Shown here: in pieces, positions 32,243-52,162 of the stretch
Numbering within the stretch: the first letter of the stretch is position 1
Layout: each line of letters starts with the position of its first letter
Source of the DNA: Acidimicrobiales bacterium
GTDB taxonomy: Bacteria > Actinomycetota > Acidimicrobiia > Acidimicrobiales > CADCTF01
Direction of reading: 5' to 3'
NCBI GenBank assembly: GCA_035540495.1
Contig: DATLGL010000064.1
Span: forward strand, 68,265 to 132,264
Length of the DNA: 64,000 nt
Made by a program: the position numbers and the translations under genes
The notes under the pieces: generated by a model
Told to the model about the DNA's origin: nothing
Seen by the model: the letters and a program-made list of their open reading frames with translations, nothing else
The model's database searches: none

Positions 32243-32281
32243 GCTCACCGTCGAACGAAGCGACGGCGCCGGACGATACGA

Positions 32282-33808
32282 CTACGCCGGATCTCGCTCC
32301 AACACGATCGGAACGTCGACGCCGGCCGCATCGGCGAGAACCTGCAGTTCGGCCACCATCGCGTCGAGCAGGTCCCAGAGGTCGGGCATGAGCTTCGAGC
32401 ACGCGACGAGTCCGAAGTCGAGCGTGTCGAGGTAGCTCTGGACGGTGACGTTCAGGCCCTGGCCGTCGACGATCGTCGACACCGGGTAGTAGTGCAGCAG
32501 CCGCGCGCCCGCCGAGTACAGGGGCTCCCGCGGACCGGGCACGTTCGAGATCACGAGGTTGACCGGGAGGCGGAAGCGGTTGCCGAGCTCGAGGCGCGTC
32601 GCCAGGCGGCTTGCCCGGGCGAACACCGCGGGCGGCGGGAACTGCGCGAACTCCGTGAGCGCCTCCGCCGGCAACGCGTCGTGCAGTCCCTTGCCGACCA
32701 TCATCGCCTCGTGGACCTTGCGCACCCGCTCGAGCGGCTCTGGTTCGTTCGTCGGGAGGTTCGCGAAGATCGCCGAGACGCGATTCGTCCACTTCTCGGT
32801 CTCCTCGCCCGTGCGCACCGACACCGGGATCATCGAGACGAGCGGCTGATCGGGCAGTTCGCCCCGCTTCTCCAAGTACGTCCGGAGCCCGCCCGCGCAG
32901 GCCGCCATCACGACGTCGTTGACCGTCGCGCCCAGCGCGTTCTTGATCGACTTCACCGCGTCGAGCGACGTCGATCGGAAAGCGAACTTGCGGTGGGGCG
33001 AGATCGCTGCGTTGAACGGGGTCTTCGGCGCGTTCAGGGACGGCAGCTGCAGAGGCGCATCGTCGCGCTCCTCCGGTCGAGGCCGCCCGAGGTTGAGCAC
33101 GGTGCCCAGCGGACCGCGCAGCGACGACCGGAGCTGCGTGCCTGCGGCCTGCAGCAACGGGTTGCGGGTGGCGCGCCCGACGTCGCGCATGGTGCGGGCA
33201 GAGAGGAGCAGCATCCTTCCTGGCTTGCGAGCCATGCTGAGGAGGGCCCTGGCGAGGACCTCGGTGTCGGCCGGAACGCGCTCGGGACGGCGGATCTCCT
33301 CGACCGGAAGCGGGATCTCGTCGCCGTCGGGGCTCGGAGTCCGGTCGAGCATCATCGTGAGGAGCTCGGCGCCCGACGCGCCGTCGATCGTCGAGTGGTG
33401 GACCTTGGTGAGGATCGCGAACCGCCCGCCGTCGAGCCCCTCGATCACGTACGACTCCCACAGCGGGCGCGTGCGGTCGAGCGGCCGGCCGATGATGCGC
33501 CCGACGAGGTCCGCGAGCTGTCGCTCATCACCGGGCGGAGGGACCGCGCTGTGTCGAACGTGGAAGTCGAGGTCGAAGTGCGGGTCTTCGATCCAGAACG
33601 GGTGATCGAGACCGAACGGCACCTCGACGAGCCGTCGGGTCAGCGGTTCGAGCAGGTGCAGGCGGCGCTCCACCTGCGCTCGCCACGACTCGAACGGTCG
33701 GTAGTGGCCGTCGGGCGGCTCGTAGATCGACACGCTCGACACGTGTCCGAACTGGTTGGGCGTCTCCATGTGCAGGAACGACGCATCGAGACCAGACAGC
33801 TGCTTCAT
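32282..33808 (-). CDS. wax ester synthase / diacylglycerol acyltransferase (WS/DGAT)
   Basis: HHSTIDGASG (the HHxxxDG active-site motif) and an N-terminus LSGLDASFLHMET typical of the family. Confidence 0.85.
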   Translation of the reverse strand: MKQLSGLDASFLHMETPNQFGHVSSVSIYEPPDGHYRPFESWRAQVERRLHLLEPLTRRLVEVPFGLDHPFWIEDPHFDLDFHVRHSAVPPPGDERQLADLVGRIIGRPLDRTRPLWESYVIEGLDGGRFAILTKVHHSTIDGASGAELLTMMLDRTPSPDGDEIPLPVEEIRRPERVPADTEVLARALLSMARKPGRMLLLSARTMRDVGRATRNPLLQAAGTQLRSSLRGPLGTVLNLGRPRPEERDDAPLQLPSLNAPKTPFNAAISPHRKFAFRSTSLDAVKSIKNALGATVNDVVMAACAGGLRTYLEKRGELPDQPLVSMIPVSVRTGEETEKWTNRVSAIFANLPTNEPEPLERVRKVHEAMMVGKGLHDALPAEALTEFAQFPPPAVFARASRLATRLELGNRFRLPVNLVISNVPGPREPLYSAGARLLHYYPVSTIVDGQGLNVTVQSYLDTLDFGLVACSKLMPDLWDLLDAMVAELQVLADAAGVDVPIVLERDPA

Positions 33809-33850
33809 CGTTGCACCCCCGTGAACGACCGCTTCCTACCGACCCAAGGC

Positions 33851-34642
33851 CTAGTTCAACCGTGCCCTCAGCTGCTTGGCCTTGCTCGCGAGCGCTCGCG
33901 CACGCTCGTCGTCGGCGTCCGGAACGAGATCTTCGAGGACGTCCGCAGCGGTGTCGAACCGTCCGAGGGCCGCGAGCACGCCGGCCCTCTCGGCCCGTTC
34001 TTCGATCGACGCGGTCGGCAGCAACCCACGCAGGCGGAGGACCCATTCGAGGTTCACGCTGTCCTTCCGTGACAGGTGGACCTGGCGGAGGTTGGCCAGC
34101 ATGCGGGCGACGATGTCGAGCGGTTCCGCGGGCGCGAGCATCGTCGCGTCGAACGGCACGTCATCGCCGTAGAGCGAGCGGAACCGGTCCGCGCACTCCT
34201 CGAGGCTGAGGAAACGCCCGCCTTCGAACGGGTCGATGAACTGCCCTCCGAGGCGCACGAGGAAGTGGCCCGGCATCCCGATCGGCTGGAACGGGACACC
34301 GAGCCGGCGCCCGACCTCGACGAGCACGATCGACAGCGTGATCGGGATGCCTCGGCGGCGCTCGATCACCTGGTCGAGGTAGCTGTTGCGAGCGTCGTAG
34401 TACGTCTCGGTGTCACCGGTGAACCCCTCGACGACGAAGAGCCGATCGAGAACGGCGTCTGCCGAGGGATCCGCGCACGACGCGGCGAGCGCATCGAGTC
34501 GACCGAGGTAGGCGGGAACGTCGAGCGGATCGTGCTCCGGACGGGCATGCGCGGCGATCAGGAGCGCCGCCTCGTCCAGTGACAGGCGGAGCGCATCCGC
34601 CGGACCGCGAACCAGTTCGGCGAAGCGGTCGGTCGCGTCCAC
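33851..34642 (-). CDS. SirB1/YchA-like transglutaminase-fold + TPR-like protein
   Basis: FTGDTETYYDARNSYLDQVIERRRGIPITLSIV..EVGRRLG...GMPGHFLVR, typical of this family. Confidence 0.65.
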   Translation of the reverse strand: MDATDRFAELVRGPADALRLSLDEAALLIAAHARPEHDPLDVPAYLGRLDALAASCADPSADAVLDRLFVVEGFTGDTETYYDARNSYLDQVIERRRGIPITLSIVLVEVGRRLGVPFQPIGMPGHFLVRLGGQFIDPFEGGRFLSLEECADRFRSLYGDDVPFDATMLAPAEPLDIVARMLANLRQVHLSRKDSVNLEWVLRLRGLLPTASIEERAERAGVLAALGRFDTAADVLEDLVPDADDERARALASKAKQLRARLN

Positions 34643-37915: not shown

Positions 37916-38827
37916 TCAGGCGCCCTTCTTGAACGCGACCTGGAAGTCGAGCCCCGCACCCTCACCCGGCACGAGCGCGAACCCGCGCGGATCGGTCGGC
38001 GACGGGAACGACGCGAGGTCGAAGGTCCAGGTGCCGGTCTCCGCGTTGCGCTTCCCGAGCACGCACGAGCCCGCATCGAACGGCGGCGCGCCATCGAGCG
38101 GGATGGCTTCGCCGTCCTTCCAGTTCGCGGTGGTCACCTGACACGCCTGCACGACGACGGGGCCGTTCGTGCTCCGGGCACCTGCCGGGTCTTCTGCCAG
38201 CGTCAGCACCTTCTGGTCACCGGCGAGGCGGATGTAGCTGCGCTTGTCGTCGGTGAGGCGCACGCCGACCGGAAGCGTGCCCGACGGAACGCCCTGCGCG
38301 GCCAGCGGGGTGCCGGACTGGCGCGACGCCCACGTGCTGCCGACGATGCGAAGTGGTGCACCGGTCGTCGTGGTGTCGCTGTCGACGCTGTTGCCGTCGA
38401 AGACGAACGCCGGGGTGTCGTTCGACGACGGGAAGGACGTGTCGGCTGAGCCGGAGCTCGAGCCACCCGTGCTCCCGCCGAACGACTCGAACGATCCGCT
38501 CGGGCCGAACGACGGCGACGAGCCAGAGAACGCAGGCGTGCCCGCGAACGCTCCACTGTCTGCCACCCCCGGAGCCGCCGGCGGCACGGACGTCGCGGAG
38601 CCGGCGCCACCGGGCGCGGAAGCGCGCGTGCTGTCGAGGAGCGACGCGCTGTCGGAGAGTGCGCCCTCCACCGACTCGGGCTTCGGGAGGATCGCGAACG
38701 CGGCGAGGAGGATCACCAAGCCGATGGCGACCGGCCGGTACCGCCGAAGCGCACGACTGACGTCGCCCAACGTGATCACCGAAAGCGCCCCCATGAAGAA
38801 GGAGGATATTCGACGCGACTCGAACAA
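37916..38827 (-). CDS. membrane-anchored hypothetical protein
   Basis: One TM span (VAIGLVILLAAFAIL), a Ser/Gly-rich linker, and a roughly 150-aa C-terminal domain. The start is either TTG 38827 (track) or ATG 38794, neither with a clear SD. Confidence 0.55.
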   Translation of the reverse strand: MFESRRISSFFMGALSVITLGDVSRALRRYRPVAIGLVILLAAFAILPKPESVEGALSDSASLLDSTRASAPGGAGSATSVPPAAPGVADSGAFAGTPAFSGSSPSFGPSGSFESFGGSTGGSSSGSADTSFPSSNDTPAFVFDGNSVDSDTTTTGAPLRIVGSTWASRQSGTPLAAQGVPSGTLPVGVRLTDDKRSYIRLAGDQKVLTLAEDPAGARSTNGPVVVQACQVTTANWKDGEAIPLDGAPPFDAGSCVLGKRNAETGTWTFDLASFPSPTDPRGFALVPGEGAGLDFQVAFKKGA

Positions 38828-38894
38828 TTGACACTGGAGTCACTAACGTCGAAGCACCGAGCCGAGGGGGGCACGGGTTGGGGGTCAACACCGC

Positions 38895-41117
38895 GTGAGC
38901 AGCGACACCGTTGCGCGTCCGGCCGACGCCGAGCGCCGCGCCGCATCGCCGATCGACGACGACCGCGTCCGCAAGGCCGCCACCGCGCTCGCCGGCGCGC
39001 TCGTCTTCTACTGGGTCATGCAGCGCCTGTGGCCCGCGCCCATCGGCGTCTACCTGCAGGGCATGGTGATCGGCGGGCTCACCGCGCTGATCGCGTTCGG
39101 TCTCGCCCTGGTCTACCGGGCGAACCGCATCATCAACTTCGCCCAGGGCGATCTCGGTGGCGTTCCCGCCGCGCTCAGCGTCCTCCTGATCCTCGGGCCC
39201 GGCGTGAACTACTTCCTCGCCGTCCCGATCGGGCTGATCGCTGCGTTCGCGCTCGGCGGGATCGTCGAGTTCGTCTTCATCCGCCGGTTCTTCAAGGCGC
39301 CGCGGCTGATCCTCACCGTCGCGACCATCGCGGTCTCGCAGATCCTCGCCGGCGTCGCTACGGCGCTCCCCCGCGTGTTCGGGCTCTCCCGTCCCCCGAC
39401 CGACTTCCCGTCGCCGTTCACGTGGAGCTTCAGCGTCGGCACCGTCGTGTTCCGCGGCAACGAGGTCTTGGCGATGATCGCCGTGCCGCTCGTGATCGCG
39501 GCGCTCACGTTCCTCCTCCGCTACACCAACATCGGCATCGCGATCCGGGCCAGCGCAGAGGGCGCCGACCGCGCCGCGCTGCTCGGCGTGCCGGTCAAGC
39601 GCATCCAGACGATCGTGTGGGTCGTCGCGACCGTGCTCGGCTTCATCGCGATCTTCCTCCGGGCGGGCATCGTGGGCCTGCCGATCGGCAGCGTCCTCGG
39701 GCCGACGATCCTCATCCGGGCGCTGACCGCAGCGGTCCTCGGTCGGATGGAGAAGTTCCCCACGATCTTCGTCGCTTCTCTCGCCCTCGGCATCGTCGAG
39801 GCCAACATCATCTTCGCCACGGGCGAGCCCACCCTCGGTGACGCCGTGCTGTTCGTCATCGTGCTCGGCGCGCTGCTCCTGCAGCGGCGCGGCGCGGCCG
39901 CCCGGGTGGACGACGACCAGGCGAGCACCTGGCAGGCAGCGAGGGAGGTCCGCCCGATCCCCCGCGAACTCGCTCACCTCCCGGAGGTGAAGTGGGGCGT
40001 GCGTGGGCTGATCGCCCTGTTCGTGGGCTTCCTCGTCGTCTTCCCGCAGATCGCGAGCGACGCCCGCACCGACCTCGGCGGCGTCGTGCTCATCTTCGTG
40101 ATGATCGGGCTGTCGCTCGTTGTGCTCACCGGCTGGAGCGGCCAGGTCAGCCTCGGTCAGGTCGCCTTCCTCGGCATCGGTGCCGCGGTCGGCGGGTACC
40201 TGTCGAACACGCGCGGGTGGGACCTCTCGCTCGCGTTGCTCGGCGCCGGCGCGGCCGGCGCCATCGCGGCGATGGTGATCGGGCTCCCGGCGCTGCGGAT
40301 CCGGGGGTTGTTCCTCGCGGTGGTGACGCTGGCGTTCGCGCTGGCGACGTCGTCGTACGCGCTCAACGCCGAGTACATCTCGTGGCTGCCGGTCAACCGC
40401 CTCGAGCGGACGCCGCTGTTCGGGCGCATCAGCGTCGCCAGCGAAGACCGCATGTACTACCTCTGCCTCGTCTCGCTCTTCCTCATGGTCGCTGTCGTGC
40501 GGGGGATCAGGAAGAGCAGGACCGGGCGGGTGCTCATCGCGGTGCGCGAGAACTCGCGTGGCGCTCAGGCCTACGGGGTGAACGCCACCGTCGCGAAGCT
40601 CACCGCCTTCGCCATGTCGGGCTTCATCGCCGCCTTCGCCGGCGGCGTGTTCGTCCACCACCAGCAGGCGCTCGGCATCTCCGCCTACACGGTTCAGCAG
40701 AGCCGAGAGGCGTTCACCATGATCGTCATCGGCGGTCTCGGGTCGATCCCCGGAGCGTTCCTCGGCGCCTTCGTGATCAAGGGCGTCAGCTACTTCCAGA
40801 GCATCTTCCCCGAGATCATCCGGCCGTATCTGAACTTCTTCACGACCGGCGTCGGCTTGCTGTTCGTGCTCCTCGTCGTGCCCGGCGGGTTCAGCCAGCT
40901 CTTCTACGCGCTGCGCGACCGGCTCCTGCGAGCGGTCGCCGACCGACGAGGTCTCGTGGTGCCGAGCCTGATCGCCGACATGCGCGTCGCGGCCACCACG
41001 CCCGAGGAGGTCGCCGACGCAGGCCTCGTCACCGACGACTTCGACGTCGAAGCATCGCTCGCCCACGCCGCGGACGCGGTCGACGCAGACACCACGAAGG
41101 AGATGTCGAACGCATGA
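38895..41117 (+). CDS. fused LivH-like + LivM-like branched-chain/HAAT-family ABC permease (740 aa)
   Basis: The N half has INFAQGDLGG and IRASAEGADRAALLGV (LivH-like). The C half has LTGWSGQVSLGQVAFLGIGA and AVRENSRGAQAYGVN..KLTAFAMSG (LivM-like). There is no stop between the halves. Confidence 0.85.
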   Translation: MSSDTVARPADAERRAASPIDDDRVRKAATALAGALVFYWVMQRLWPAPIGVYLQGMVIGGLTALIAFGLALVYRANRIINFAQGDLGGVPAALSVLLILGPGVNYFLAVPIGLIAAFALGGIVEFVFIRRFFKAPRLILTVATIAVSQILAGVATALPRVFGLSRPPTDFPSPFTWSFSVGTVVFRGNEVLAMIAVPLVIAALTFLLRYTNIGIAIRASAEGADRAALLGVPVKRIQTIVWVVATVLGFIAIFLRAGIVGLPIGSVLGPTILIRALTAAVLGRMEKFPTIFVASLALGIVEANIIFATGEPTLGDAVLFVIVLGALLLQRRGAAARVDDDQASTWQAAREVRPIPRELAHLPEVKWGVRGLIALFVGFLVVFPQIASDARTDLGGVVLIFVMIGLSLVVLTGWSGQVSLGQVAFLGIGAAVGGYLSNTRGWDLSLALLGAGAAGAIAAMVIGLPALRIRGLFLAVVTLAFALATSSYALNAEYISWLPVNRLERTPLFGRISVASEDRMYYLCLVSLFLMVAVVRGIRKSRTGRVLIAVRENSRGAQAYGVNATVAKLTAFAMSGFIAAFAGGVFVHHQQALGISAYTVQQSREAFTMIVIGGLGSIPGAFLGAFVIKGVSYFQSIFPEIIRPYLNFFTTGVGLLFVLLVVPGGFSQLFYALRDRLLRAVADRRGLVVPSLIADMRVAATTPEEVADAGLVTDDFDVEASLAHAADAVDADTTKEMSNA

Positions 41118-44100
41118 CCGGGCTGAAGAAGCGCCTGCTCGGCGTCACCGGTGGAGCGAACCCGACGCCGCTCCTCGTCCTCTTCTCGCTGAACGCCGTC
41201 GACGAGCTCGACCGCGCCGCGTTCGCGGTGCTCACGCCGGAGATCCGAGACGCCTTCGGTCTCAACAACCAGGGCATCCTCTCGGTGATCGCGATCGTCG
41301 GCGCCCTGTCGTACGGGCTCCAGCCGTTCATCGGCTTCCTCGCCGACCGCAAGTCGCGGGTGCGCATCGCGATCCTCGGCGCTGCGATCTGGGCGAGCTT
41401 CACGGTCCTGACCGGGTTGGCTCCCTTCATCTGGGTGCTCATCATCGCCAGGTGCGGTACGGCGATCGGGCGGTTCGTCAACGACCCGACGCACAACTCG
41501 CTGCTCGCCGACTACTACGAGCCCGAGCACCGCATCAAGGTCTACGGCGTCCACCGGGCCGCGAACTCGGTCGGCCAGATCCTTGGCCCGCTCGCGGGCG
41601 GTTTCCTCGCTGCGGCCTTCACGTGGCGGGCGCCGTTCCTGGCGTTCCCGATCTTCACGGTTCTCGCGATCGTCTTCGCCGTCAGCAAGCTGCGCGAGCC
41701 GGTGCGCGGCCGCTTCGACCGCATGGCGATGGGTGCCAGCGAGGAGATCGCCGACACCGAAGAGACCGCCGCTTCGTTCGCGGAGAGCTGGCGCATCTGC
41801 AACCAGGTGATGACCTTGCGGCGCATCTGGCTGTCACTCCCCTTCCTGGCCGCGTCGCTGATCGGGCTCGGCTCGCTCACGTCCCTGTTCTACGAAGACG
41901 TCTTCGGGTTGAGCGAAGCCGAACGTGGTGTGATCGCCGCGATAGCCGAGCCGTTCCAGCTGCTCGGGATCCTCATCGGCATCCCGCTCGCGACGAAGCT
42001 CTTCAACCGGGGCCCGGGCCTCGTCCTCAAGTTCCTTGGCGTCGTCGGCACGCTCAGCGGCGTGTTCCTCGCCCTGTTCGCCCTGGCCCCGAGCGTGCCG
42101 ATCGCCGTCGGCCTGAACATCCTCGCCTCGTCGGTGCTCGGCATCCTCGGCCCCGGCATCAACGCCGTGCTCTCGCAGGCGATCCCGCCCCGGGCGCGCA
42201 GCCTCGGCTTCTCGATCGGGTCGCTCTACGTGATCCCGGGCTTCCTGATCCTGATCGTGATCGGCGGCTTCGCAGATTCGATCGGCATCCGTGGTGCCCT
42301 GATCATGATGTTGCCCGTCTTCCTCATCGGAGCGTTCATCATCGCCAGCGCGGGCTCGTTCGTCGAGGCCGACATCAACAAGGTCCGCACGTCCGCCGTC
42401 GCCCAGTCGGAAGTGCTGGCGGCCCGTCGCGACGGCCGGGCGAAGCTCCTCCTCGTGAAGGACCTCGACGTCGGCTACGACTCGGTGCAGGTGCTCTTCG
42501 GCGTGAACTTCGAGGTCGAGGAGGGCCAGATCATCGCCCTGCTCGGCACGAACGGCGCCGGCAAGTCGACCCTGCTCAAGGCGATCTCCGGTCTGCTCCC
42601 CGCATCTGCGGGCGCGGTGATCTTCGACGGCGTCGACATGACCTACGCCCCGCCCCAGGAGGTCGCCGGCCGCGGCGTCGTGCAGGTGCCCGGCGGCAAG
42701 GGCGTGTTCCCGACGCTGTCCGTCGAGGAGAACCTCAAGATCGCAGGGTGGATGTATCGCGGCGACCAGGAGTACGTGCAGCGCGCCACCGAGCAGGTGC
42801 TCGAGTACTTCCCGGTGCTGCGGGAGCGTTGGAACCAGCCGGCCGGGAACCTCTCGGGCGGCGAGCAGCAGATGCTCACCCTCGGCCAGGCGTTCATCAC
42901 CAAGCCCCGCCTGCTGATGATCGACGAGCTCTCCCTCGGCCTCGCCCCGATCATCGTCGAGCAGCTCCTCAAGATCGTGAAGGCGATCCAGGAGAACGGC
43001 ACCACGATCATCCTCGTCGAGCAGTCGGTGAACGTCGCCCTGACCGTGGCCGACACGGCGTTCTTCCTCGAGAAGGGTGAGATCCGGTTCCAGGGCCCGA
43101 CGGCGGAGCTGCTCGACCGTCCAGACGTCCTGCGCTCGGTCTTCCTCGAAGGCGCCGGATCGGTGGAGGGTGGCGAGGCGTCGAAGAAGCTGGCGCCAGC
43201 TCGCGCCCGCGGTGCGGTGACGGTCGACCGCGACGACGCACGCGTCGTTCTGGAGACGCGCAACCTGTCGAAGCGGTTCGGCGGCATCGTCGCCACGAAC
43301 GACGTCTCGTTCAAGCTCTACGAGAACGAGATCCTCGGCTTCATCGGCCCGAACGGCGCAGGCAAGACCACGCTCTTCGACGAGATCTCGGGGTTCCTCC
43401 CGCTCGACGGCGGACGCATCTTCCTCCTCGGAGAAGACGTGACGGAGCTCGGCCCGGACGGTCGGGCGCGACTCGGCCTCGGCCGGTCGTTCCAGGACGC
43501 TCGCCTCTTCCCTGCCCTGACCGTGCGCGACACGATCGCGGTCGCGCTCGAGCGCCAGATCGACGTGCGCGACCCGTTGGCCGCAGCCCTCAACCTGCCG
43601 TCGGTCGCGGACTCCGAGAACGACGTCGAAGCCAAGGTCGACGAGCTGATCGAGCTCATGGGCATCCAGGCCTTCGCCGACAAGTTCGTGTCGGAGCTCT
43701 CGACCGGCAGCCGGCGCATCGTCGACCTCGCGTGCATCCTCGCCCACGAGCCGAAGGTCATCCTCTTCGACGAGCCGTCGTCGGGCATCGCCCAGCGAGA
43801 GACCGAGGCGCTCGGCCCGCTCCTCCTCCGCATCCGCGAGACGACCGGGGCGAGCCTGCTCGTGATCGAGCACGACATGCCGCTCATCACCTCGATCTCC
43901 GACCGGATGATCGCCCTCGATCTGGGCACCGTCGTCACCGACGGGCCGCCGCACGAGGTCGTCAACCACCCACAGGTCGTGGCGTCGTACCTCGGCACCG
44001 ACGAGGCGGTCATCGCGCGCTCCGGCGGCCGCACGACCATCGGCTCCACCAACGGATCCACCAACGGCTCGACCCGCCGGCGCACCCGCCGGCGCACCGA

Positions 44101-44140
44101 GTCAGCAACGTCCACCACCACCACCATCACCAAGGGGTGA
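41114..44140 (+). CDS. MFS-domain / LivF-like ATPase / LivG-like ATPase triple fusion (1008 aa)
   Basis: ATG 41114 overlaps the upstream TGA (ATGA). Twelve hydrophobic spans with the motif-A-like GFLADRKSRVRIAILG. NBD1 carries GTNGAGKST / LSGGEQQ / LLMIDE. NBD2 carries GPNGAGKTT / LSTGSRR / ILFDEP and NHPQVVASYLG. The part of the track ORF upstream of 41114 is shadow sequence. Confidence 0.85.
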   Translation: MTGLKKRLLGVTGGANPTPLLVLFSLNAVDELDRAAFAVLTPEIRDAFGLNNQGILSVIAIVGALSYGLQPFIGFLADRKSRVRIAILGAAIWASFTVLTGLAPFIWVLIIARCGTAIGRFVNDPTHNSLLADYYEPEHRIKVYGVHRAANSVGQILGPLAGGFLAAAFTWRAPFLAFPIFTVLAIVFAVSKLREPVRGRFDRMAMGASEEIADTEETAASFAESWRICNQVMTLRRIWLSLPFLAASLIGLGSLTSLFYEDVFGLSEAERGVIAAIAEPFQLLGILIGIPLATKLFNRGPGLVLKFLGVVGTLSGVFLALFALAPSVPIAVGLNILASSVLGILGPGINAVLSQAIPPRARSLGFSIGSLYVIPGFLILIVIGGFADSIGIRGALIMMLPVFLIGAFIIASAGSFVEADINKVRTSAVAQSEVLAARRDGRAKLLLVKDLDVGYDSVQVLFGVNFEVEEGQIIALLGTNGAGKSTLLKAISGLLPASAGAVIFDGVDMTYAPPQEVAGRGVVQVPGGKGVFPTLSVEENLKIAGWMYRGDQEYVQRATEQVLEYFPVLRERWNQPAGNLSGGEQQMLTLGQAFITKPRLLMIDELSLGLAPIIVEQLLKIVKAIQENGTTIILVEQSVNVALTVADTAFFLEKGEIRFQGPTAELLDRPDVLRSVFLEGAGSVEGGEASKKLAPARARGAVTVDRDDARVVLETRNLSKRFGGIVATNDVSFKLYENEILGFIGPNGAGKTTLFDEISGFLPLDGGRIFLLGEDVTELGPDGRARLGLGRSFQDARLFPALTVRDTIAVALERQIDVRDPLAAALNLPSVADSENDVEAKVDELIELMGIQAFADKFVSELSTGSRRIVDLACILAHEPKVILFDEPSSGIAQRETEALGPLLLRIRETTGASLLVIEHDMPLITSISDRMIALDLGTVVTDGPPHEVVNHPQVVASYLGTDEAVIARSGGRTTIGSTNGSTNGSTRRRTRRRTESATSTTTTITKG

Positions 44141-44142
44141 CC

Positions 44143-46044
44143 ATGGGGAACTGGCAGAACGTCACGCTCGCCGACATCGCGAAGGGGTTCGCGCGCTACC
44201 GGCCCTTCATCGCTGTGCTGGCCGGCGTCATCCTCGTCGCCGCGTTCATGCCCGGGCAGAGTCGCGGTCCGTCTGATGTCACCGCGAGCGAGCTCGACGC
44301 CGCGCTCGGCACGACGCAGACGACGGTGGCCGGCGATGCCGCCGACGCCGGTGGCGACATCGCCTCGACCGACGGAACGACCGTCGACGGTGCGACCACG
44401 GCCGGCGTCACCGGAGGCGGTGGAACCGTCGGCACGGGCGGCCCGGCCCGCAGCGCGTCGACCGGCGGTTCGACTGCGGGCGCGACGTCGGGCGGCGGAG
44501 CCACGAGCACGGGAGCCCAGCCGGTGCCGGCAGGAACCGGTGCCGACTGCGATCCGGCCACCGGACGCATCCGCATCCCCACAAAGTTCGCTGCGCCGTG
44601 CAAGCCGATCGTCGCGAAGGCGCAGAACGGCGGCGCGACGTCGTTCGGGGTCACCGCCGACGAGATCACGATCGTCTGGTATCGCGGTGTCGCGGATCCG
44701 GCCGTCACCGCTGCGCTCACCGCGGCCGGTGCGGCCGACCAGCGCGAAGACGTCGACCACACGGTGCAGCAGTACGCCGACATCCTCACCCATCACTTCA
44801 ACCTGTACGGCCGCAAGATCAAGTTCCACATCCACAACGGCGACGCGAAGGCCGAAGACGACGCCCAAGGACGAGCCGACGCCAAGGCCGTCGTCGACAA
44901 GTACAAGCCGTTCGCCGTCATCAACTCGGTCAACAACGCGTTCGTCGACCAGCTCGTTGCCAGCAAGGTCATCTGCATCTGCACGACGTCGCAGCCGCAG
45001 GAGTTCTACGAGCAGCGGTTCCCGTACGCGGGGTGGACGACGCTGATGTCGTCGAGCCAGGGCTACATCCACCGCGCCGAGTACGTCGGGAAGCGCCTCG
45101 CTGGTCAGAAAGCAAGGTGGGCGGGCACCCGCGACGTCACCCAGCAGATGAACCAGGAGGAGCGGGTCTTCGGGCTCCTCTACTACGAGACCCCCGACAA
45201 CGCGTACCGGGGCGGCGTGGAGTTCTTCAAGAAGGAGCTCGCTCGGTACGGCGTGCAGCTCAAGGAGGTGCTCGCCTATCCGTCGAACCTCGCCCAGGCC
45301 CAGGAGCAGACCCGTTCGCTGATCTCGAAGCTCAAGGCATCGGGCGTCAACAGCGTGATCTTCTCTGGTGATCCGATCACCCCGGCGACGTTCACCACCG
45401 AGGCCCAGAACCAGCGCTGGCAGCCGGAGTGGATCATCACCGGCTCCGCCCTCGTCGACACGACCCTGTTCGCCCGCACCTACAACCAGGACCAGTGGTC
45501 GCGGGCATTCGGCATCTCGTACCTCTCGCTGCGGTTCCCCGAAGAGCAGACGACGTCGTTCAACATCCACCGTTGGCACACCGGCCAGCCGCCGCGGGCC
45601 GGCAACACCCATGGCGTGCTGTGGGCGCCGTTCTTCATCCTCGGCACGGGGATGCACATGGCGGGCCCGCAGCTGACGCCGCAGACGTTCGCCAAGGGGC
45701 TCTTCGAGTACCCGCCGACGGGCGGATTCGTGACGGCACCGCACACCTCGTACGGACGCCACGGCATCTGGGATCGCGACCCGTGGAAGCTGGTCGACCT
45801 CACGCAGTACGACGACGTCACCGAGATCTGGTGGGACCGCACCGCGACCGGCCCGGACGAGGTCGGCAACAACGGCGTCGGGATGTACCGCTACGTCGAC
45901 GGCGGCAAGCGATACCTGCCCGGTCAGCATCCGCAGACGCCGCCGAAGGCGTTCGACCCGAACGGGGCGCCGACGATCCTCGACCGTGCCCCCGAGAACG
46001 AGCGGGCGCCGGAGTACGAGCACAAGCACCACTACCACGGGTAG
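44143..46044 (+). CDS. TM-anchored type-I (LivJ-like) ABC substrate-binding protein (633 aa)
   Basis: AAGGGG precedes ATG 44143. An N-terminal TM span (FIAVLAGVILVAAF), a Gly/Thr/Ala linker, then GVTADEITIV...KPFAVINSV...VFGLLYYETPDNAYRGGV, typical of periplasmic-binding-protein type I. The tail is EYEHKHHYHG. Confidence 0.75.
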   Translation: MGNWQNVTLADIAKGFARYRPFIAVLAGVILVAAFMPGQSRGPSDVTASELDAALGTTQTTVAGDAADAGGDIASTDGTTVDGATTAGVTGGGGTVGTGGPARSASTGGSTAGATSGGGATSTGAQPVPAGTGADCDPATGRIRIPTKFAAPCKPIVAKAQNGGATSFGVTADEITIVWYRGVADPAVTAALTAAGAADQREDVDHTVQQYADILTHHFNLYGRKIKFHIHNGDAKAEDDAQGRADAKAVVDKYKPFAVINSVNNAFVDQLVASKVICICTTSQPQEFYEQRFPYAGWTTLMSSSQGYIHRAEYVGKRLAGQKARWAGTRDVTQQMNQEERVFGLLYYETPDNAYRGGVEFFKKELARYGVQLKEVLAYPSNLAQAQEQTRSLISKLKASGVNSVIFSGDPITPATFTTEAQNQRWQPEWIITGSALVDTTLFARTYNQDQWSRAFGISYLSLRFPEEQTTSFNIHRWHTGQPPRAGNTHGVLWAPFFILGTGMHMAGPQLTPQTFAKGLFEYPPTGGFVTAPHTSYGRHGIWDRDPWKLVDLTQYDDVTEIWWDRTATGPDEVGNNGVGMYRYVDGGKRYLPGQHPQTPPKAFDPNGAPTILDRAPENERAPEYEHKHHYHG

Positions 46045-46072
46045 CGGCGCCACGACAGCGAGGAAAGCGCGT

Positions 46073-46102
46073 AGAGGCCCCCTCCAGCCGGAGGGGGCCT
46101 CT
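46073..46102. terminator. bidirectional stem-loop terminator between convergent operons
   Basis: AGAGGCCCCCTCC-AGCC-GGAGGGGGCCTCT: a perfect 13-bp stem with a 4-nt loop. It lies 29 nt after the SBP stop and overlaps the stop codon of the minus-strand gene. The flanking T-tracts are weak. Confidence 0.65.
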
Positions 46103-47372
46103 ATTCGTCTTCGAGCTCGAGCTTGTCGCCGCCGTCGACCGCTCGAAGGCGACCGGCGATCGCCCGCAGTTCCTCGATTGGGATCGTGCCGTAGATGCGT
46201 ACGTACCGACCGCCGTCGCGTGGCGCGCGCAACTCGACCCCCGCGCCGCTGAGAAGCAGCTCGGCTTCGCCGAACGGTGCCACCTCGATCTTCGGCGCCC
46301 CCGCTGTCGGCTGGAAGGCCTCACCGCCGCGCAGCGTGCCGCCCTGGTCGATGGCGACGATGTCGACCCCGCGACGCCACGCGTCGACGACGCCTGCGCG
46401 GCGGAACGACTCGCGCAGGGGGTCGTCGCCGAAGTTCTCCGGCTGCGGTGGGACGACGCTGAACCGGCCCAGGTACTCGAAGCCTTCCGGTGCTTCGTCG
46501 AGGACGAGGAACTCGCCCGGAGGCGTCGAGCCCGCTTTCACCCTGCGGACGAAGCCGCCGCCAGACGCCGCGGGCACCGGATCGCCGTCGACCGCGAACA
46601 GGTCATCCGCGAGCGTCGGGTCCTCGTCGACCTCCACCGCGACTCGTCGAGTGAGCACCTGCCCGTCGGCGGTGACGACCTCCTCGAGGACGAGGCCGGC
46701 CTCGTCGACGCAGGTGTCGGCGTGGTCGGTGTCGGTCGGGGGCTCGACCACAGCGGCGAGGGTCTGGCGCGACCGGTAGATCTGGCACAGACGATCGGCG
46801 ACCCGTCGCACCTCGCGGCGCTCGACGAGGCCACGTTCCACGGCCTCGGGCAGCGCGACCTCGAGTCGAAGGTCGGTCGGCGGCAGCGCAGGCGCCACCT
46901 GCAGCACGCTCGGTGCGCCCGAGCTCTCCGTCGACGTGAGCAGGTAGGTGCCGATCCGCGACGAGAACGTCTCGCCGCCCGGGGGCGCGCCTTCCTTCGT
47001 GTCGAGGCGGCTGTCGAACGGGCGCTTCGAGCTCACGACGTCGGTGAGGACGCTGATCTCCCGTCCCGCGGTCTCGACCCGGTAGACGATCCGCGCGGAA
47101 GCGGGCGTGCGCACGATGTCGACGGCGTCCGCTCCGTCGACGACCGTCGACCCCCGACGTCCGATCGACGCGAGCTCCTGCGTGCCGTCGTCACCGGCGC
47201 CGTCGTCGCCGCTCGTCGCGACGAGCACGGCCGTCGCTCCTCCGACGACGACCACGCTGGTGGCGATGGCGACGACGAGCGGCCGCTTCGCCCGCTTCTG
47301 TCGCCTCGCGCGCCGGCGCCGGGCCCGCTCCGCCTCGATGCGGGCGCGCCGGCGCTCGTCGCGGTCACTCAT
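46101..47372 (-). CDS. membrane-anchored hypothetical protein (423 aa)
   Basis: Arg-rich N-terminus, one TM span (LVVAIATSVVVVGGATAVLVA) and a large C-terminal domain. It lies 27 nt downstream of the esterase gene. No motif recognised. Confidence 0.6.
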   Translation of the reverse strand: MSDRDERRRARIEAERARRRRARRQKRAKRPLVVAIATSVVVVGGATAVLVATSGDDGAGDDGTQELASIGRRGSTVVDGADAVDIVRTPASARIVYRVETAGREISVLTDVVSSKRPFDSRLDTKEGAPPGGETFSSRIGTYLLTSTESSGAPSVLQVAPALPPTDLRLEVALPEAVERGLVERREVRRVADRLCQIYRSRQTLAAVVEPPTDTDHADTCVDEAGLVLEEVVTADGQVLTRRVAVEVDEDPTLADDLFAVDGDPVPAASGGGFVRRVKAGSTPPGEFLVLDEAPEGFEYLGRFSVVPPQPENFGDDPLRESFRRAGVVDAWRRGVDIVAIDQGGTLRGGEAFQPTAGAPKIEVAPFGEAELLLSGAGVELRAPRDGGRYVRIYGTIPIEELRAIAGRLRAVDGGDKLELEDE

Positions 47373-47399: not shown

Positions 47400-48905
47400 T
47401 CAGGCGGACGACATGCGGCCGGTGACCCGGCCTTCCCACGCCCGGCGTTCCTGCTCCATCGGTGCGTCGACGACCTCGACCGTCTTGCCGAGACGCATCG
47501 TGGCCCGCCGCTCGCCGTCGTAGGCCGGCCAATCGCCCAACGCCTCCGACGACGGGTTCCCGGTGCGAGCGAACGCGATCCACGCGTCCATCATGGCGGC
47601 CGACAGCGCCTCGGCCTCGGCACCCTCACCGGCGAACATGTTCATCATCGGCTGGTCGAGGTTGCCGAACACGAACGGGATCTCGAGGGCGTGACACGAC
47701 CTCAGGAAGCCACCCGCGGCCGGCGACTCCCAGTCGAAGAGGTACTCGTACACCGGCGAACCCGTCGCCGCGTGGGCCTCCGCCATCCGCAGCGAGGGGA
47801 TGCGGAACATCCGATCGCTCTCGATCGCGACCCACAGCGAGAACGGGTCGGTCGGCAGCCCTTGGTCGGCGCGGGCCTTGGCGTAGGTCTCGATCAGGTC
47901 GTCGAGACCTTCCTCGCCGACTGTCGCCGCGAGCCGCCGGCGCGTGACCGCATCGTCGCCGGCGGTGAGCTTGCGGTCGCCCATGGCGAAGTACGTCATC
48001 TCGTCGCGGTTGGTGCCCACGAGGATCGGCACGCCGTGGTTCAGGCCGTCACGGATGGCGTCGAGCGCCTGCACCGGGAGCGTGGTGCCGTCGACCACCG
48101 GAGCCAGCGGCGTCGCCAGCCGGCCGAGACGCTCGACGATCTTCTCCTGCGCCTCGACCAGTTCCTCGAGCGGCGTGTCGCGGAGGTCGCGGACGTCGTC
48201 GACGCCGCACTCCTCGACGAGCGCGTTCACGAACTTCTCCGCGAACCGGATCGGGAACCCGCCAGGCCCGCCGCTCTCGGCGATGACCTTGTGGAAGAGC
48301 CCCTTGGCTGCCGGTGTGCCCAGCAGCGTGGCGACGCTGACCGACCCGGCCGACTCGCCGAACGCGGTCACGTTGTCGGGGTCGCCGCCGAAGGCGGCGA
48401 TGTTGTCCCTCACCCACTGCAGGGCAGCGATCTGGTCGAGAAGCCCCCAGTTGCCGCCGCCGAGGTGCTCGCTCGCGAGCCACCCGAGCAGGCCGAGGCG
48501 ATAGTTGATCGTCACGACGACGACGTCGCCCCGCTTGGCGAGGTTGGCGCCGTTGTACAGACCCATCGACCCAGAGCCGCTCTGGAACGCGCCGCCGTGG
48601 ATCCAGACCATCACGGGCCGCTTCTCCGAGTCGCCGGCGCCCGGCGTCCACACGTTGAGAGACAGGCAGTCTTCCGAGTGCGCGTGCGCGTCGCCCATCG
48701 CCACGCCGGTCATCTGCACGGGCTGGGGCGCGGTCGGACCGAACACCGTCGCATCACGTACCCCGTCCCACGCGTCCGGCGGCTGCGGCGCCCGCCACCG
48801 CAGGTCGCCGAGGGGCGGCGCGGCGAACGGGATGCCGCGGAACACCGCGACGCCCTTGTCGTCCGCTCCCTGCACCTTGCCGTAGGTCGTCTCCACGATG
48901 GTCAT
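47400..48905 (-). CDS. type-B carboxylesterase (PnbA-like)
   Basis: FRGIPFAAPP.G..RW, VMVWIHGGAF, FGESAGS nucleophile elbow. ATGA overlap with the upstream gene. Confidence 0.9.
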   Translation of the reverse strand: MTIVETTYGKVQGADDKGVAVFRGIPFAAPPLGDLRWRAPQPPDAWDGVRDATVFGPTAPQPVQMTGVAMGDAHAHSEDCLSLNVWTPGAGDSEKRPVMVWIHGGAFQSGSGSMGLYNGANLAKRGDVVVVTINYRLGLLGWLASEHLGGGNWGLLDQIAALQWVRDNIAAFGGDPDNVTAFGESAGSVSVATLLGTPAAKGLFHKVIAESGGPGGFPIRFAEKFVNALVEECGVDDVRDLRDTPLEELVEAQEKIVERLGRLATPLAPVVDGTTLPVQALDAIRDGLNHGVPILVGTNRDEMTYFAMGDRKLTAGDDAVTRRRLAATVGEEGLDDLIETYAKARADQGLPTDPFSLWVAIESDRMFRIPSLRMAEAHAATGSPVYEYLFDWESPAAGGFLRSCHALEIPFVFGNLDQPMMNMFAGEGAEAEALSAAMMDAWIAFARTGNPSSEALGDWPAYDGERRATMRLGKTVEVVDAPMEQERRAWEGRVTGRMSSA

Positions 48906-50359
48906 CCGTTGCCCCCTACCCGTTCTGCGCGAAGTCCCGAACGGCGCACCTTCCCGGCGTCGTCGCGGACCTGTCCTTCCACTCGTTCGAAGCTGCGCGG
49001 GATCTTGTACGACACGAGACGCTCCTTCAGGAACGCCCGCAGCTCGTCGTCGGTGACCTCACCTGCCTTCGGGTCGAGCTCGATCACGGCGTGGACCCGG
49101 TTGCCGAAGTCGTCGTCGGGGATCCCGATCACCGCGCACGAGGCGATGGCGGGATGTTCGTCGAGCGCGGCCTCGACCTCGGCCGGGTAGATGTTCGCGC
49201 CGCCGGCCAGGATCATGTCGGTGCGACGGTCGGCGAGGTAGAGGTAGCCGTCTTCGTCGATGTAGCCCATGTCGCCGAGCGACTCCCAGCCCTCGTCGTC
49301 GCGGCGGGCTTCGGCGCCGATGTACTGATAGGTCTTGCCGCCTTCGGGCGGCTTCATCCAGAGCTCGCCGATCTCGCCAGGCGGGCACTCCTCACCCGTG
49401 CCGGGATCGACGATCTTCATCCGCCCCGGCGTCGCCTTGCCCACCGTGCCGCGATGGGCCATCCACTCCTCGCCGCCGATGATCGTGACGCCCTGGGCCT
49501 CGGTGCCGGCGTAGAGCTCCCACACCTTGTCGGCACCGATCCACTCGATCCACGCCTCCTTGAGCCACGGCGGGCACGGCGCCGCGAGGTGGAGGATCCC
49601 TTTCAGCGAGTCGAGCGGGTACTGCTGCTTCACCTCCTCGGGGAGGCGGTGCATGCGGAGCATCATCGTCGGCACGAGGAGCATCCAGTCGACCTGGTGC
49701 TCGGCGACGAGCTGCACGGCGCGCAGCGCGTCGAACCGCGGCATCACGATGATGTGGTTGCCGGCGAAGAGCGCGCTCATGGAGAACATGAACGGCGCGT
49801 TGTGATACAGCGGCCCCGGCACGAGCTCGGTCCCGTTGTGCCCGGCGCCGAAGCCGCGCGGACCTTCGGGGTCGACTTCGCCCTTCTGGCCGCTGACGAT
49901 CAGCTTCGGGCGTCCGGTCGAGCCACCGCTCGTCGGCGCCTTGTACGACGGGGCGGTGCGGTCGGGCAGGATCGGCTCGTCGCTCGCGTCCTCGTCGGGC
50001 TCGATGACCTCGGTGACCACGAGGCTCGGCTTGGCGAGCTCGATGATCTCCTTGCGCTCCCGCTCGGGGAGCTTGTGGCTCACCGGCTGTGGTGTGGCGC
50101 CGAGCTTCCACGCCGCGATCGACGCCTCGTAGAAGTCGATGCCGTTCGGGAGCCCGATGGTGACGAAGCTTCCCTCCGTCACCCCGAGCCGTTCGTAGGT
50201 ACGGGCGAGGCGGTTCGTCCGCTTCTCGAGCTCCATCCGGGTGACGGTGCGCTCCTCGCGGATGTGCGCACCGTCGACCGGTACTTCGGTGATGGCGGGA
50301 CGGTCCGGCTGCTGTTCAGCGAGCCACCGGACCGCCGCGCCGATCGGTTGGATGGCCAC
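48902..50359 (-). CDS. AMP-forming acyl-CoA synthetase
   Basis: Start set to GTG 50359, sharing one base with the upstream TAG. PTSGGSTGRPK, YAGTE, GDMGYIDEDGYLYLADR. Confidence 0.85.
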   Translation of the reverse strand: MAIQPIGAAVRWLAEQQPDRPAITEVPVDGAHIREERTVTRMELEKRTNRLARTYERLGVTEGSFVTIGLPNGIDFYEASIAAWKLGATPQPVSHKLPERERKEIIELAKPSLVVTEVIEPDEDASDEPILPDRTAPSYKAPTSGGSTGRPKLIVSGQKGEVDPEGPRGFGAGHNGTELVPGPLYHNAPFMFSMSALFAGNHIIVMPRFDALRAVQLVAEHQVDWMLLVPTMMLRMHRLPEEVKQQYPLDSLKGILHLAAPCPPWLKEAWIEWIGADKVWELYAGTEAQGVTIIGGEEWMAHRGTVGKATPGRMKIVDPGTGEECPPGEIGELWMKPPEGGKTYQYIGAEARRDDEGWESLGDMGYIDEDGYLYLADRRTDMILAGGANIYPAEVEAALDEHPAIASCAVIGIPDDDFGNRVHAVIELDPKAGEVTDDELRAFLKERLVSYKIPRSFERVEGQVRDDAGKVRRSGLRAERVGGNG

Positions 50360-51222
50360 TAGGCGAAGGTGAACTTGCCCTGGTCGAGGACGACGTCGCC
50401 GTTCGGGTTGACCGTCTGGAACAGGGCGTCGTTGCCGTCGACCCACATGCGGACCGTCAGCGCCTCGCCGGGGAAGACCGGCTTGGAGAACCGGCCCTCC
50501 ATCATCTTGAAGTTCGCAGGGTCGGAGCCGCACAGCGTGTGGAGCAGCGCCCGCCCGGTGAAGCCCCACGTGCACAGGCCGTGGAGGATCGGCTTCGGGA
50601 AGCCGGCCATCTTGGCGAACTCGGGGTCGGAGTGGAGCGGGTTCCGGTCGCCCGACAGGCGATAGAGCAGCGCCTGGTCTTCACGCGTCTGGACGGTGAC
50701 CTCGTGGTCGGGCTTCGTCGACGGGAACTCGAGCTTCTCGCTCGGGCCCCGGTCGCCGCCGAAGCCGCCCTCACCGCGCAGGAAGACGTGCGACTTGAGG
50801 GAGAAGAGCGGCTCTTCGGTCTCGGCGTCGACCGACTCCGACTCGCTGAGCACGACCGCGCCGGAGCCCTTGTCGTAGACCGCGAGGGTGCGGCCGCGCG
50901 ACTTGAGCTTGCCCTCGGCCGGGATCTCCTTGTGGATCGTCAGCGTGCGGCCACCGTCGACCAGCAGCGCAGGGTTGAAGGTGCCGATGTTGCGCATGCC
51001 GCCGCCACCGCCGCCGAGGATGACGGCCATGGTCGGCAGCGCACGCTGCTTGACGTCCTTCGAGTTCTCGGTGGTGAACTCGAGCTCCTTGCCCGTCGGG
51101 TCCTCGGCGCCGGCGCCGACGCCGAGGGCGTAGAGCAGCGAGTCCTTCGACGTCCACGAGCGCTCGTGCCAGTCGCTCCAGTCGCTCGGGAGCTGGGCGA
51201 CGGCGTCCTTGTCGATGGGCAT
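50359..51222 (-). CDS. MaoC-like double hot-dog (R)-specific enoyl-CoA hydratase
   Basis: Start set to ATG 51222 (MPIDKDAV). MaoC signature YRLSGDRNPLHSDPEFA. The 287-aa length is like two-domain hydratase-2 proteins. Confidence 0.8.
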   Translation of the reverse strand: MPIDKDAVAQLPSDWSDWHERSWTSKDSLLYALGVGAGAEDPTGKELEFTTENSKDVKQRALPTMAVILGGGGGGMRNIGTFNPALLVDGGRTLTIHKEIPAEGKLKSRGRTLAVYDKGSGAVVLSESESVDAETEEPLFSLKSHVFLRGEGGFGGDRGPSEKLEFPSTKPDHEVTVQTREDQALLYRLSGDRNPLHSDPEFAKMAGFPKPILHGLCTWGFTGRALLHTLCGSDPANFKMMEGRFSKPVFPGEALTVRMWVDGNDALFQTVNPNGDVVLDQGKFTFA

Positions 51223-51236
51223 GTGTGACGGCCTCC

Positions 51237-52139: not shown

Positions 52140-52162
52140 GTTGTTGTCTGTCTCCTGCTTCG

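Follow-up and report, generated by a model that had tools for sequence, protein, structure and literature searches.

A Spinster-like MFS domain joined to the paired ATPases of a LIV-type ABC importer in Acidimicrobiia

The MFS (major facilitator superfamily) and the ABC (ATP-binding cassette) superfamily are the two largest superfamilies of transporters, and they are treated as mechanistically separate, the one drawing on ion gradients and the other on ATP. What, then, is a polypeptide that contains both? Such a polypeptide, of 1008 amino acids (aa), is encoded on the 64,000-nucleotide stretch of DNA analysed here (the window), which comes from an Acidimicrobiales bacterium (contig DATLGL010000064.1 of GenBank assembly GCA_035540495.1, positions 68,265 to 132,264). 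Its N-terminal part is an MFS domain, and the two ATPases of a LIV-type importer, LivF-type and then LivG-type, follow in the same chain. A reading of the sequence alone, hereafter the original prediction, had described this arrangement and had offered three options for the MFS part, namely a second translocation path, a sensor that gates ATP hydrolysis, or just a membrane anchor. Here, we examine whether the fusion is real, what kind of importer it belongs to, and what the MFS part may do. The system is real and widespread; it is an uncharacterised variant of an importer type that is already known, and its MFS part is probably a functioning module instead of a mere anchor.

The fusion gene and its family

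The gene and the parts of its product are listed below with the evidence for each part in brackets, where TM denotes a transmembrane helix, NBD a nucleotide-binding domain, AF2 the AlphaFold2 model, pLDDT its per-residue confidence (predicted local distance difference test), and dN/dS the ratio of nonsynonymous to synonymous substitution rates.

41114–44140, + strand: MFS-LivF-LivG fusion gene, 1008 codons plus stop, no internal stop
41165–42358, + strand: Spinster-like MFS domain of twelve helices, aa 18–415 (Pfam MFS_1, AF2 helices, profile against the PDB)
42359–42442, + strand: helical connector from TM12 to the first strand of NBD1, aa 416–443 (AF2, dN/dS, spacing)
42443–43153, + strand: NBD1, LivF-type ATPase, aa 444–680 (NCBIfam LivF/UrtE, motifs)
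43154–43243, + strand: variable, predicted disordered linker between NBD1 and NBD2, aa 681–710 (low pLDDT, dN/dS 0.63)
43244–44008, + strand: NBD2, LivG-type ATPase with a BCA_ABC_TP_C end, aa 711–965 (NCBIfam LivG/UrtD, Pfam)
44009–44137, + strand: low-complexity tail rich in Ser/Thr/Asn and Arg, aa 966–1008 (pLDDT below 50, dN/dS 0.66)

As the original prediction had stated, a single uninterrupted frame runs through 41114–44140, and its translation holds the three parts with all the motifs quoted there, including GFLADRKSRVRIAILG and the tail. From its 1008 residues, the mass of the product is estimated at about 107 kDa. The overlap of the start codon with the stop codon of the upstream permease gene, as ATGA (...gaaggagatgtcgaacgcATGAccggg), is read directly in the sequence, and a Shine-Dalgarno-like GAAGGAG lies about 10 nucleotides 5' of it. 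The scan with profile hidden Markov models that had been proposed as a check supports the MFS, LivF-type and LivG-type parts. Pfam MFS_1 matches aa 24–368 (E 1.8e-37, 129.5 bits against a cut-off of 33.4), ABC_tran matches two stretches (E 1.1e-57), and BCA_ABC_TP_C (PF12399) matches aa 940–964 (29.3 bits against a cut-off of 25.5), while the best NCBIfam matches are LivF/UrtE for aa 445–679 and LivG/UrtD for aa 711–962. NBD1 carries the Walker A motif GTNGAGKST, the signature LSGGEQQ and the Walker B motif LLMIDE together with VPGGKGVFPTLSVEENL; NBD2 carries RFGGIVATNDVSF, GPNGAGKTT, LSTGSRR, ILFDEP and NHPQVVASYLG. The Walker B glutamates are E605 and E887. The tail consists of a GSTN GSTN GST tandem repeat, an RRRTRRR stretch and a run of Thr, of which homologues share a loose Arg-rich character only. 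The DNA of the window is 70% G+C, and antisense open reading frames (ORFs) of 949 aa (38217–41066, − strand) and 911 aa (43318–46053, − strand) overlap the transporter genes; these are the usual shadow frames of such DNA and not genes. Long ORFs being cheap at this composition, the support for the fusion comes from domain matches and conservation and not from ORF length.

An identical protein is already public under the name 'MAG TPA: MFS transporter [Acidimicrobiales bacterium]' (P0001), and more than 120 full-length homologues (970–1050 aa, 62–91% identity), all of which contain MFS_1 and ABC_tran, were found among the 5.8 billion proteins searched. A scan of species-representative genomes (one per species) with a six-sequence MFS alignment found relatives of the MFS domain at 549 loci or more, and the best 80 of these loci were examined for frame and taxonomy. 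Almost all of the 80 belong to Acidimicrobiia (Ilumatobacteraceae, Microthrixaceae, Iamiaceae), and the hosts of the fusion include the cultured Ilumatobacter nonamiensis YM16-303 (L047) and a Candidatus Microthrix genome. In 71 of the 72 complete loci among the 80, one frame holds the MFS domain together with two Walker A motifs.

These counts bear on the possibility that the fusion is an artefact, in which a frameshift, a mis-assembly or a lost stop codon joined neighbouring genes in one metagenome-assembled genome. Some ground for such a view exists, since single-base errors could join genes that overlap as ATGA, and a few database proteins (P0202, P0183) resemble read-through LivHM-MFS fusions. 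An artefact does not explain why a single frame recurs in 71 of 72 loci from independent assemblies, nor the more than 120 full-length homologues, the strong purifying selection at the junction regions, or the presence of the fusion in a cultured isolate, and we consider it extremely improbable. The objection of frameshift or mis-assembly, which the original prediction had raised against itself, is thus removed, and its central claim, that a secondary-carrier fold is tethered covalently to the complete LivF and LivG pair, is borne out by the profile matches to all three parts and by the uninterrupted loci. The prediction had also allowed that the architecture might prove to be a common and already characterised family. 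Common it is, as the 549 or more loci with MFS relatives attest; characterised it is not, for the names in the databases are automatic only, either 'MFS transporter' or 'ABC-type branched-chain amino acid transport system ATPase component/MFS permease'. Full-text literature searches returned no paper on an MFS-ABC ATPase fusion, in agreement with the statement that no characterised example was known.

Some genomes contain two copies of the whole gene module described below (L013 and L045 in JBMOLI01; L014 and L040 in JBFJNI01), which suggests paralogous systems with different substrates. Larger fusions may exist as well: P0202 and P0183 run from LivHM into the MFS domain, L141:8073-10859 has LivHM and a LivG-type domain in one frame with overlapping matches, and P0268 has a LivG-type end followed by an MFS domain, and each of these could be a real fusion or a sequencing error.

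The importer module, the MFS domain and the connector

Two genes on the same strand flank the fusion gene directly.

38895–41117, + strand: LivH-LivM fused permease (LivHM), 740 aa, start codon provisional (Pfam BPD_transp_2, NCBIfam)
44143–46044, + strand: X633, 633 aa, predicted divergent, membrane-anchored LIV-type substrate-binding protein (Foldseek on the AF2 model)

The permease is matched by Pfam BPD_transp_2 (PF02653) in two stretches (E 2e-54) and by NCBIfam as LivH-like at aa 54–337 and LivM-like at aa 363–669. The ATG of X633 lies 2 nucleotides past the stop of the fusion gene, and LivHM, MFS-LivF-LivG and X633 form a translationally coupled three-gene module with the fusion in the middle. 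This order, LivHM followed by the fusion and X633, is kept in essentially every locus with enough flanking sequence.

X633 begins with an N-terminal TM anchor, continues with a spacer rich in Gly, Thr and Ala, and ends in an ectodomain of about 500 aa (aa ~125–633). The protein itself has no sequence match in Pfam, NCBIfam or the PDB. Many of its homologues carry PF13458 (Peripla_BP_6), its AF2 model, built with 44 homologues, is confident (pLDDT 83.9), and all top Foldseek matches of that model are type-I LIV, aromatic-acid or fatty-acid binding proteins (E about 1e-13, probability 1.0), among them 4mpt, 4q6b, 4evs and 4n03 (binders of leucine, aromatic acids or fatty acids). On the strength of these three observations X633 is, by its modelled fold, a type-I (Peripla_BP_6 fold) and highly divergent LIV-type binding protein, and the model resembles binders of hydrophobic amino acids, aromatic acids and fatty acids. 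Directly before the TM helix stands an anchor motif, R-R-[YW]-x-P (within aa 1–40; 44143–44260), in which R18 and Y19 are invariant in the 44 homologues. The motif recurs at the N-termini of the binding proteins in L100, L104, L111, L113, L114, L117 and L122 and is kept in two of the four gene orders described below, types A and B. A simple anchor would not usually be conserved to this degree, and the conservation may reflect a specific contact with the membrane domains of the transporter. The X633 family also has four invariant cysteines, C136 and C153 and a C-x-C pair (ICICTTSQPQE, C278 and C280), which may form disulfides or contact a ligand or metal.

With LivHM, the LivF-LivG pair and a binding protein of LIV-type fold, the locus has every component of a binding-protein-dependent ABC importer of the LIV/HAAT type, and an MFS domain in addition. 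The reference system, LIV-I/HAAT, is E. coli LivJ/K-LivH-LivM-LivG-LivF (TC 3.A.1.4). The importer described here shares with it the LivH/LivM-type BPD_transp_2 domains, a LivG-type ATPase with a BCA_ABC_TP_C end, a LivF-type ATPase in which VEQ replaces the H-loop histidine, and a type-I (Peripla_BP_6 fold) binding protein. It differs in several respects. One chain holds both LivH and LivM, another holds LivF followed by LivG, the binding protein has a TM anchor and has diverged beyond the reach of Pfam, and a twelve-helix MFS domain precedes LivF. No NCBIfam equivalog cut-off for LivG, LivF, LivH or LivM is reached (296.9 against 362 bits for LivG and 243.6 against 441 for LivF), and the importer part thus has the family-level features of LIV-I/HAAT while falling below the equivalog cut-offs. 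A urea transporter (UrtBCDE) was considered and rejected, with scores below the cut-offs for UrtB (77 against 250.3), UrtC (69.5 against 296.2) and UrtD (278.6 against 304.1); UrtE scores 298 against a cut-off of 285.8, but this whole-protein score sums two ATPase domains.

More divergent metagenome loci resolve into four gene orders. Type A is LivHM, MFS-LivF-LivG, binding protein; type B is binding protein, LivHM, MFS-LivF-LivG; type C is binding protein, LivHM, MFS-LivF and a separate LivG; and type D, represented by four loci, is MFS-LivF, LivHM, LivG. LivHM, the MFS-LivF fusion and the LivG domain occur together in all four orders. The binding-protein gene adjoins in types A to C, and none was detected in the four type D loci. 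LivHM lies directly 5' of the MFS fusion in types A to C, which comprise nearly all related loci, and 3' of MFS-LivF in type D. In each of the four, the LivF-type domain has the MFS domain directly on its N-terminal side.

In the AF2 model of the fusion protein (pLDDT 81.3, predicted template modelling score, pTM, 0.64), aa 11–430 have pLDDT values mostly above 90 (82–94 per 10-residue block). The twelve spans and the long central loop that the original prediction had read from hydrophobicity are both found in the model, with N-half helices at 18–39, 52–79, 82–101, 106–134, 137–168 and 173–192, a central loop at 193–232, and C-half helices at 233–264, 268–299, 301–323, 328–356, 359–389 and 392–415. 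Motif A (G-x-x-x-D-R/K-x-x-R, here GFLADRKSRVR with D78, R79 and R82), between TM2 and TM3, and R113 of motif B, in TM4, are invariant or nearly so in alignments, and motif C reads GPLAGG. The best solved relative in a single-sequence search against the PDB is HnSpns, a bacterial Spinster homologue (E 6.8e-15). A 21-sequence profile returned HnSpns 6e8j (E 6.8e-34) and human SPNS1 (2.4e-24), followed by DgoT, NorA, VMAT2, SPNS2 (3.5e-18) and EfpA. With HnSpns the domain shares the Asp-Arg pair of TM1 (D33-R34 here, LNFIDR in HnSpns), motif A, the DYYPP..R loop and EPxRG after TM6. It differs from known Spinsters in an extra invariant acidic pair in TM1 (D30, E31), in being fused where they are free-standing, and in the position of Glu129 (TM4) of HnSpns, which we take to be the proposed proton-coupling (protonation) residue of that protein and which is Arg120 here and Lys or Arg throughout the family. 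Owing to the Arg or Lys at this position, the domain is called Spinster-like and is not filed as a member of the Spinster family (TC 2.A.1.49; PMC3924187).

Selection on the fusion was estimated from one sequence pair, the window and its closest relative, L149 (91% identical). The dN/dS is 0.077 for the MFS domain, 0.072 for the LivF domain, 0.098 for the LivG domain and 0.12 for LivHM. It is 0.63 for the linker between the ATPases, which is 40% identical to that of the closest relative, and 0.66 for the C-terminal tail. The model predicts that the linker and the tail are disordered, with pLDDT below 50 at aa 676–705 and 962–1008.

The MFS domain also occurs outside the fusion. In a library of 1.84 billion representatives, 303 relatives at E ≤ 1e-30 fall into three architectures: the MFS domain alone (about 420–470 aa), MFS with a LivF-type ATPase (about 675–755 aa), and MFS with both ATPases (about 940–1060 aa). 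The free-standing paralogues form a large clade of about 45% identity. LIV genes were expected beside them and were not found, the gene contexts being unrelated; one free-standing paralogue shares a genome with a fused copy. In one locus (L130:356-6926), a free-standing paralogue adjoins an ordinary, distant LIV system (26–35% identity) on the opposite strand, which is either a coincidence or a loose association. Between 119 fused and 110 free-standing sequences, 87 positions are at least 90% conserved in both, and they include all charged core residues (D30, E31, D33, R34, D78, R79, R82, R113, D133, R271, R362 and D388). Few positions set the fused proteins apart, and most of these differ conservatively; they comprise the small residues G365, G369, G406 and G414 in TM11 and TM12 and four residues of the connector. 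In a rough neighbour-joining tree, midpoint-rooted and without support values, free-standing clades lie among the fused ones, which would mean that the MFS domain can work alone. Together with the low dN/dS and the conserved charged core, this placement argues that the chemistry of an autonomous carrier is retained in the MFS domain and that a role as pure anchor is unlikely.

The connector is what joins this domain to the ATPases. According to the AF2 model, TM12 continues as a helix through 417–439 and leads into the strand at 444 of the LivF domain. The dN/dS of the connector is 0.044, measured over 28 codons of the single pair. Of 209 fused proteins, 172 have a spacing of 58 residues from the conserved D420 to the Walker A glycine and 199 have one of 58–60, and the 58–60-residue spacing holds also in the type D proteins, whose MFS domains are about 27% identical. 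The spacing between the two Walker A motifs, in contrast, varies by about 50 residues between loci. The four fused-specific connector residues are K423, V434, R438 and G441. A conserved helix of fixed length is what is expected of a structural strut or lever and not of a passive tether.

Possible roles of the MFS domain

A specific link between the MFS and LivF domains is indicated by their adjacency in every arrangement, by the modelled helix between them, and by the low dN/dS and fixed length of the connector. In the reading that we favour, the MFS domain would be a working alternating-access module that lies in the membrane beside LivHM, on the LivF side, and it would be tied to the LivF domain, at its first strand, by a rigid helix of fixed length. 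Such a geometry would most likely lead to conformational cross-talk between the MFS and ABC machines, for which two forms can be considered. If the closure and opening of the ATPase dimer bias the rocker-switch of the MFS domain, the domain would be an ATP-gated second pathway; if instead the state of the domain gates ATP hydrolysis, it would be a regulator of the importer. That the MFS domain sits beside LivHM and exchanges conformational information with the ATPase dimer, as second pathway or as hydrolysis regulator, is given a probability of about one half. A bolder version, a hybrid primary/secondary transporter in which the LivF-LivG ATP cycle drives or gates the MFS rocker-switch through the rigid TM12 connector in parallel to LivHM, is unlikely by our estimate; if true, it would be the first MFS carrier energised by ATP.

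Several points weigh against the favoured reading. Purifying selection and a fixed connector fit any structural role, that of a scaffold included, and the dN/dS of the connector comes from 28 codons of one sequence pair. The pTM of 0.64 leaves the arrangement of the domains in the model uncertain, and the tree that places free-standing among fused clades is a neighbour-joining one with a midpoint root and no support values. The basic residue in place of Glu129 hints that the coupling chemistry of the MFS domain may differ from that of known Spinsters. Neighbouring genes gave no clue to a substrate, as 127 flanking ORFs from 56 loci match 95 Pfam families, none of which occurs more than six times. 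As for related proteins, the X633 model resembles the binders named above, and Spinster relatives move amphipathic lipids.

Other accounts of the MFS domain compete with conformational cross-talk. Two independent transporters might simply share one chain, the MFS part performing its own proton-coupled transport uncoupled from the ABC cycle, for example to export a related amphipathic compound or take it up with low affinity, while the fusion would serve only 1:1 co-expression and co-localisation. The free-standing paralogues, which keep the same conserved core at about 45% identity and stand in unrelated contexts without LIV genes, speak for a module that is autonomous in principle, and the fused proteins depart from them in few and mostly conservative positions. 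An operon, however, already provides co-expression, and independence leaves unexplained both why the domain is joined to LivF in every gene order and why a fixed-length connector of low dN/dS is kept while the LivF-LivG linker drifts freely; we regard this account as possible but rather doubtful. Somewhat less probable still is a scaffold or docking platform, in which a non-transporting MFS domain positions the ATPase pair, or binds the R-R-Y-x-P anchor and so keeps the binding protein at the transporter, or both. Such a platform agrees with the persistence of the anchor motif in gene orders of both type A and type B and with its occurrence in a neighbouring membrane-anchored protein, U292, which would not be usual for a simple anchor; it agrees also with the fused-specific small residues of TM11 and TM12 (G365, G369, G406, G414), which are what a helix-packing face would have. 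Yet the fused proteins retain, as the paralogues do, motifs A, B and C and every charged intramembrane residue (D30, E31, D33, R34, R113 and others), where a non-transporting domain should have relaxed them, and twelve helices make a costly anchor. The plain membrane anchor of the original prediction comes out as the least likely of the three options named there, given a dN/dS of 0.08, a charged core common to the paralogues and a connector of fixed length.

Surroundings, precedents and meaning

Outside the three-gene module, two genes on the opposite strand recur in part of the family.

37916–38794, − strand: U292, 292 aa, TM-anchored, divergently transcribed, module membership uncertain
46101–47372, − strand: D423, 423 aa, with an Arg/Lys-rich N-terminus, one TM helix and an ectodomain

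U292 has no match in Pfam or NCBIfam. Its N-terminus, ITLGDVSRALRRYRPVAIGLVILLAAF, closely resembles the X633 anchor, VTLADIAKGFARYRPFIAVLAGVILVAAF, an R-Y-R-P motif being common to both, and homologues of U292 adjoin the module in the closest relatives only (L004, L005, L009, L013, L015, L090). D423 has no Pfam match above threshold and is kept 3' of the module in many close and some distant relatives (e.g., L004, L005, L008-L010, L013, L015, L016, L089, L098, L099). Lipid-metabolism genes flank the module on both sides (31274–34642 and 47400–53743) and encode a patatin-like phospholipase, a WS/DGAT wax-ester synthase, a carboxylesterase, two acyl-CoA synthetases, a MaoC hydratase and an SDR. 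Their synteny is kept in the closest relative (L149) and the carboxylesterase recurs in L001 and L005, but the association is not kept across the family; as a substrate clue these neighbours were dropped, being common to the closest relatives only. No Rfam family, riboswitches included, matched anywhere in the window, and promoter and terminator scans gave background levels only.

Among systems of known structure, the top Foldseek matches of the whole fusion model are Mycobacterium tuberculosis DppD (8wdb) and OppD (8j5r), and the matches listed consist only of tandem-ATPase and ABC-exporter chains. DppD and OppD likewise carry two ATPase domains per chain and belong to a binding-protein-dependent importer, but they are without a membrane domain. 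No PDB chain that joins an MFS fold to ABC ATPase domains was present among the 50 matches listed. The TMD0 of ABCC proteins, a 5-helix bundle without a transporter fold that is attached to the permease domain, resembles the MFS part as an extra N-terminal membrane domain outside the core translocation pathway; it differs in lacking a transporter fold and in sitting on the permease, whereas the MFS domain described here sits on an ATPase domain. LplT-Aas is an MFS protein fused to an acyltransferase/synthetase. It offers a precedent for an MFS domain within a larger machine, as a full MFS domain is joined there covalently to a nucleotide-using cytoplasmic module. The Sensor Kinase-MFS family (TC 2.A.1.34; PMC3924187) offers another of the same kind, and an MFS-ABC ATPase fusion is absent from the MFS fusions listed in that Saier-lab survey. 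The partner in these precedents is a kinase or an acyltransferase/synthetase, and not the motor of another transporter.

A natural, conserved and strongly selected family thus joins an MFS carrier to an ABC motor through an apparent rigid lever. Its hosts, the Acidimicrobiia, are abundant in soil, freshwater, marine sediments and activated sludge (Ilumatobacter, Microthrix), and the cultured ones, for example Ilumatobacter nonamiensis, make the question of its mechanism testable. If the two parts communicate, the fusion would represent a new way to energise or regulate a secondary carrier and would also give ABC importers a regulatory domain of a new kind. If they are independent, the module is still a widespread and unstudied uptake system, with an unusual membrane-anchored binding protein that current profile libraries miss.

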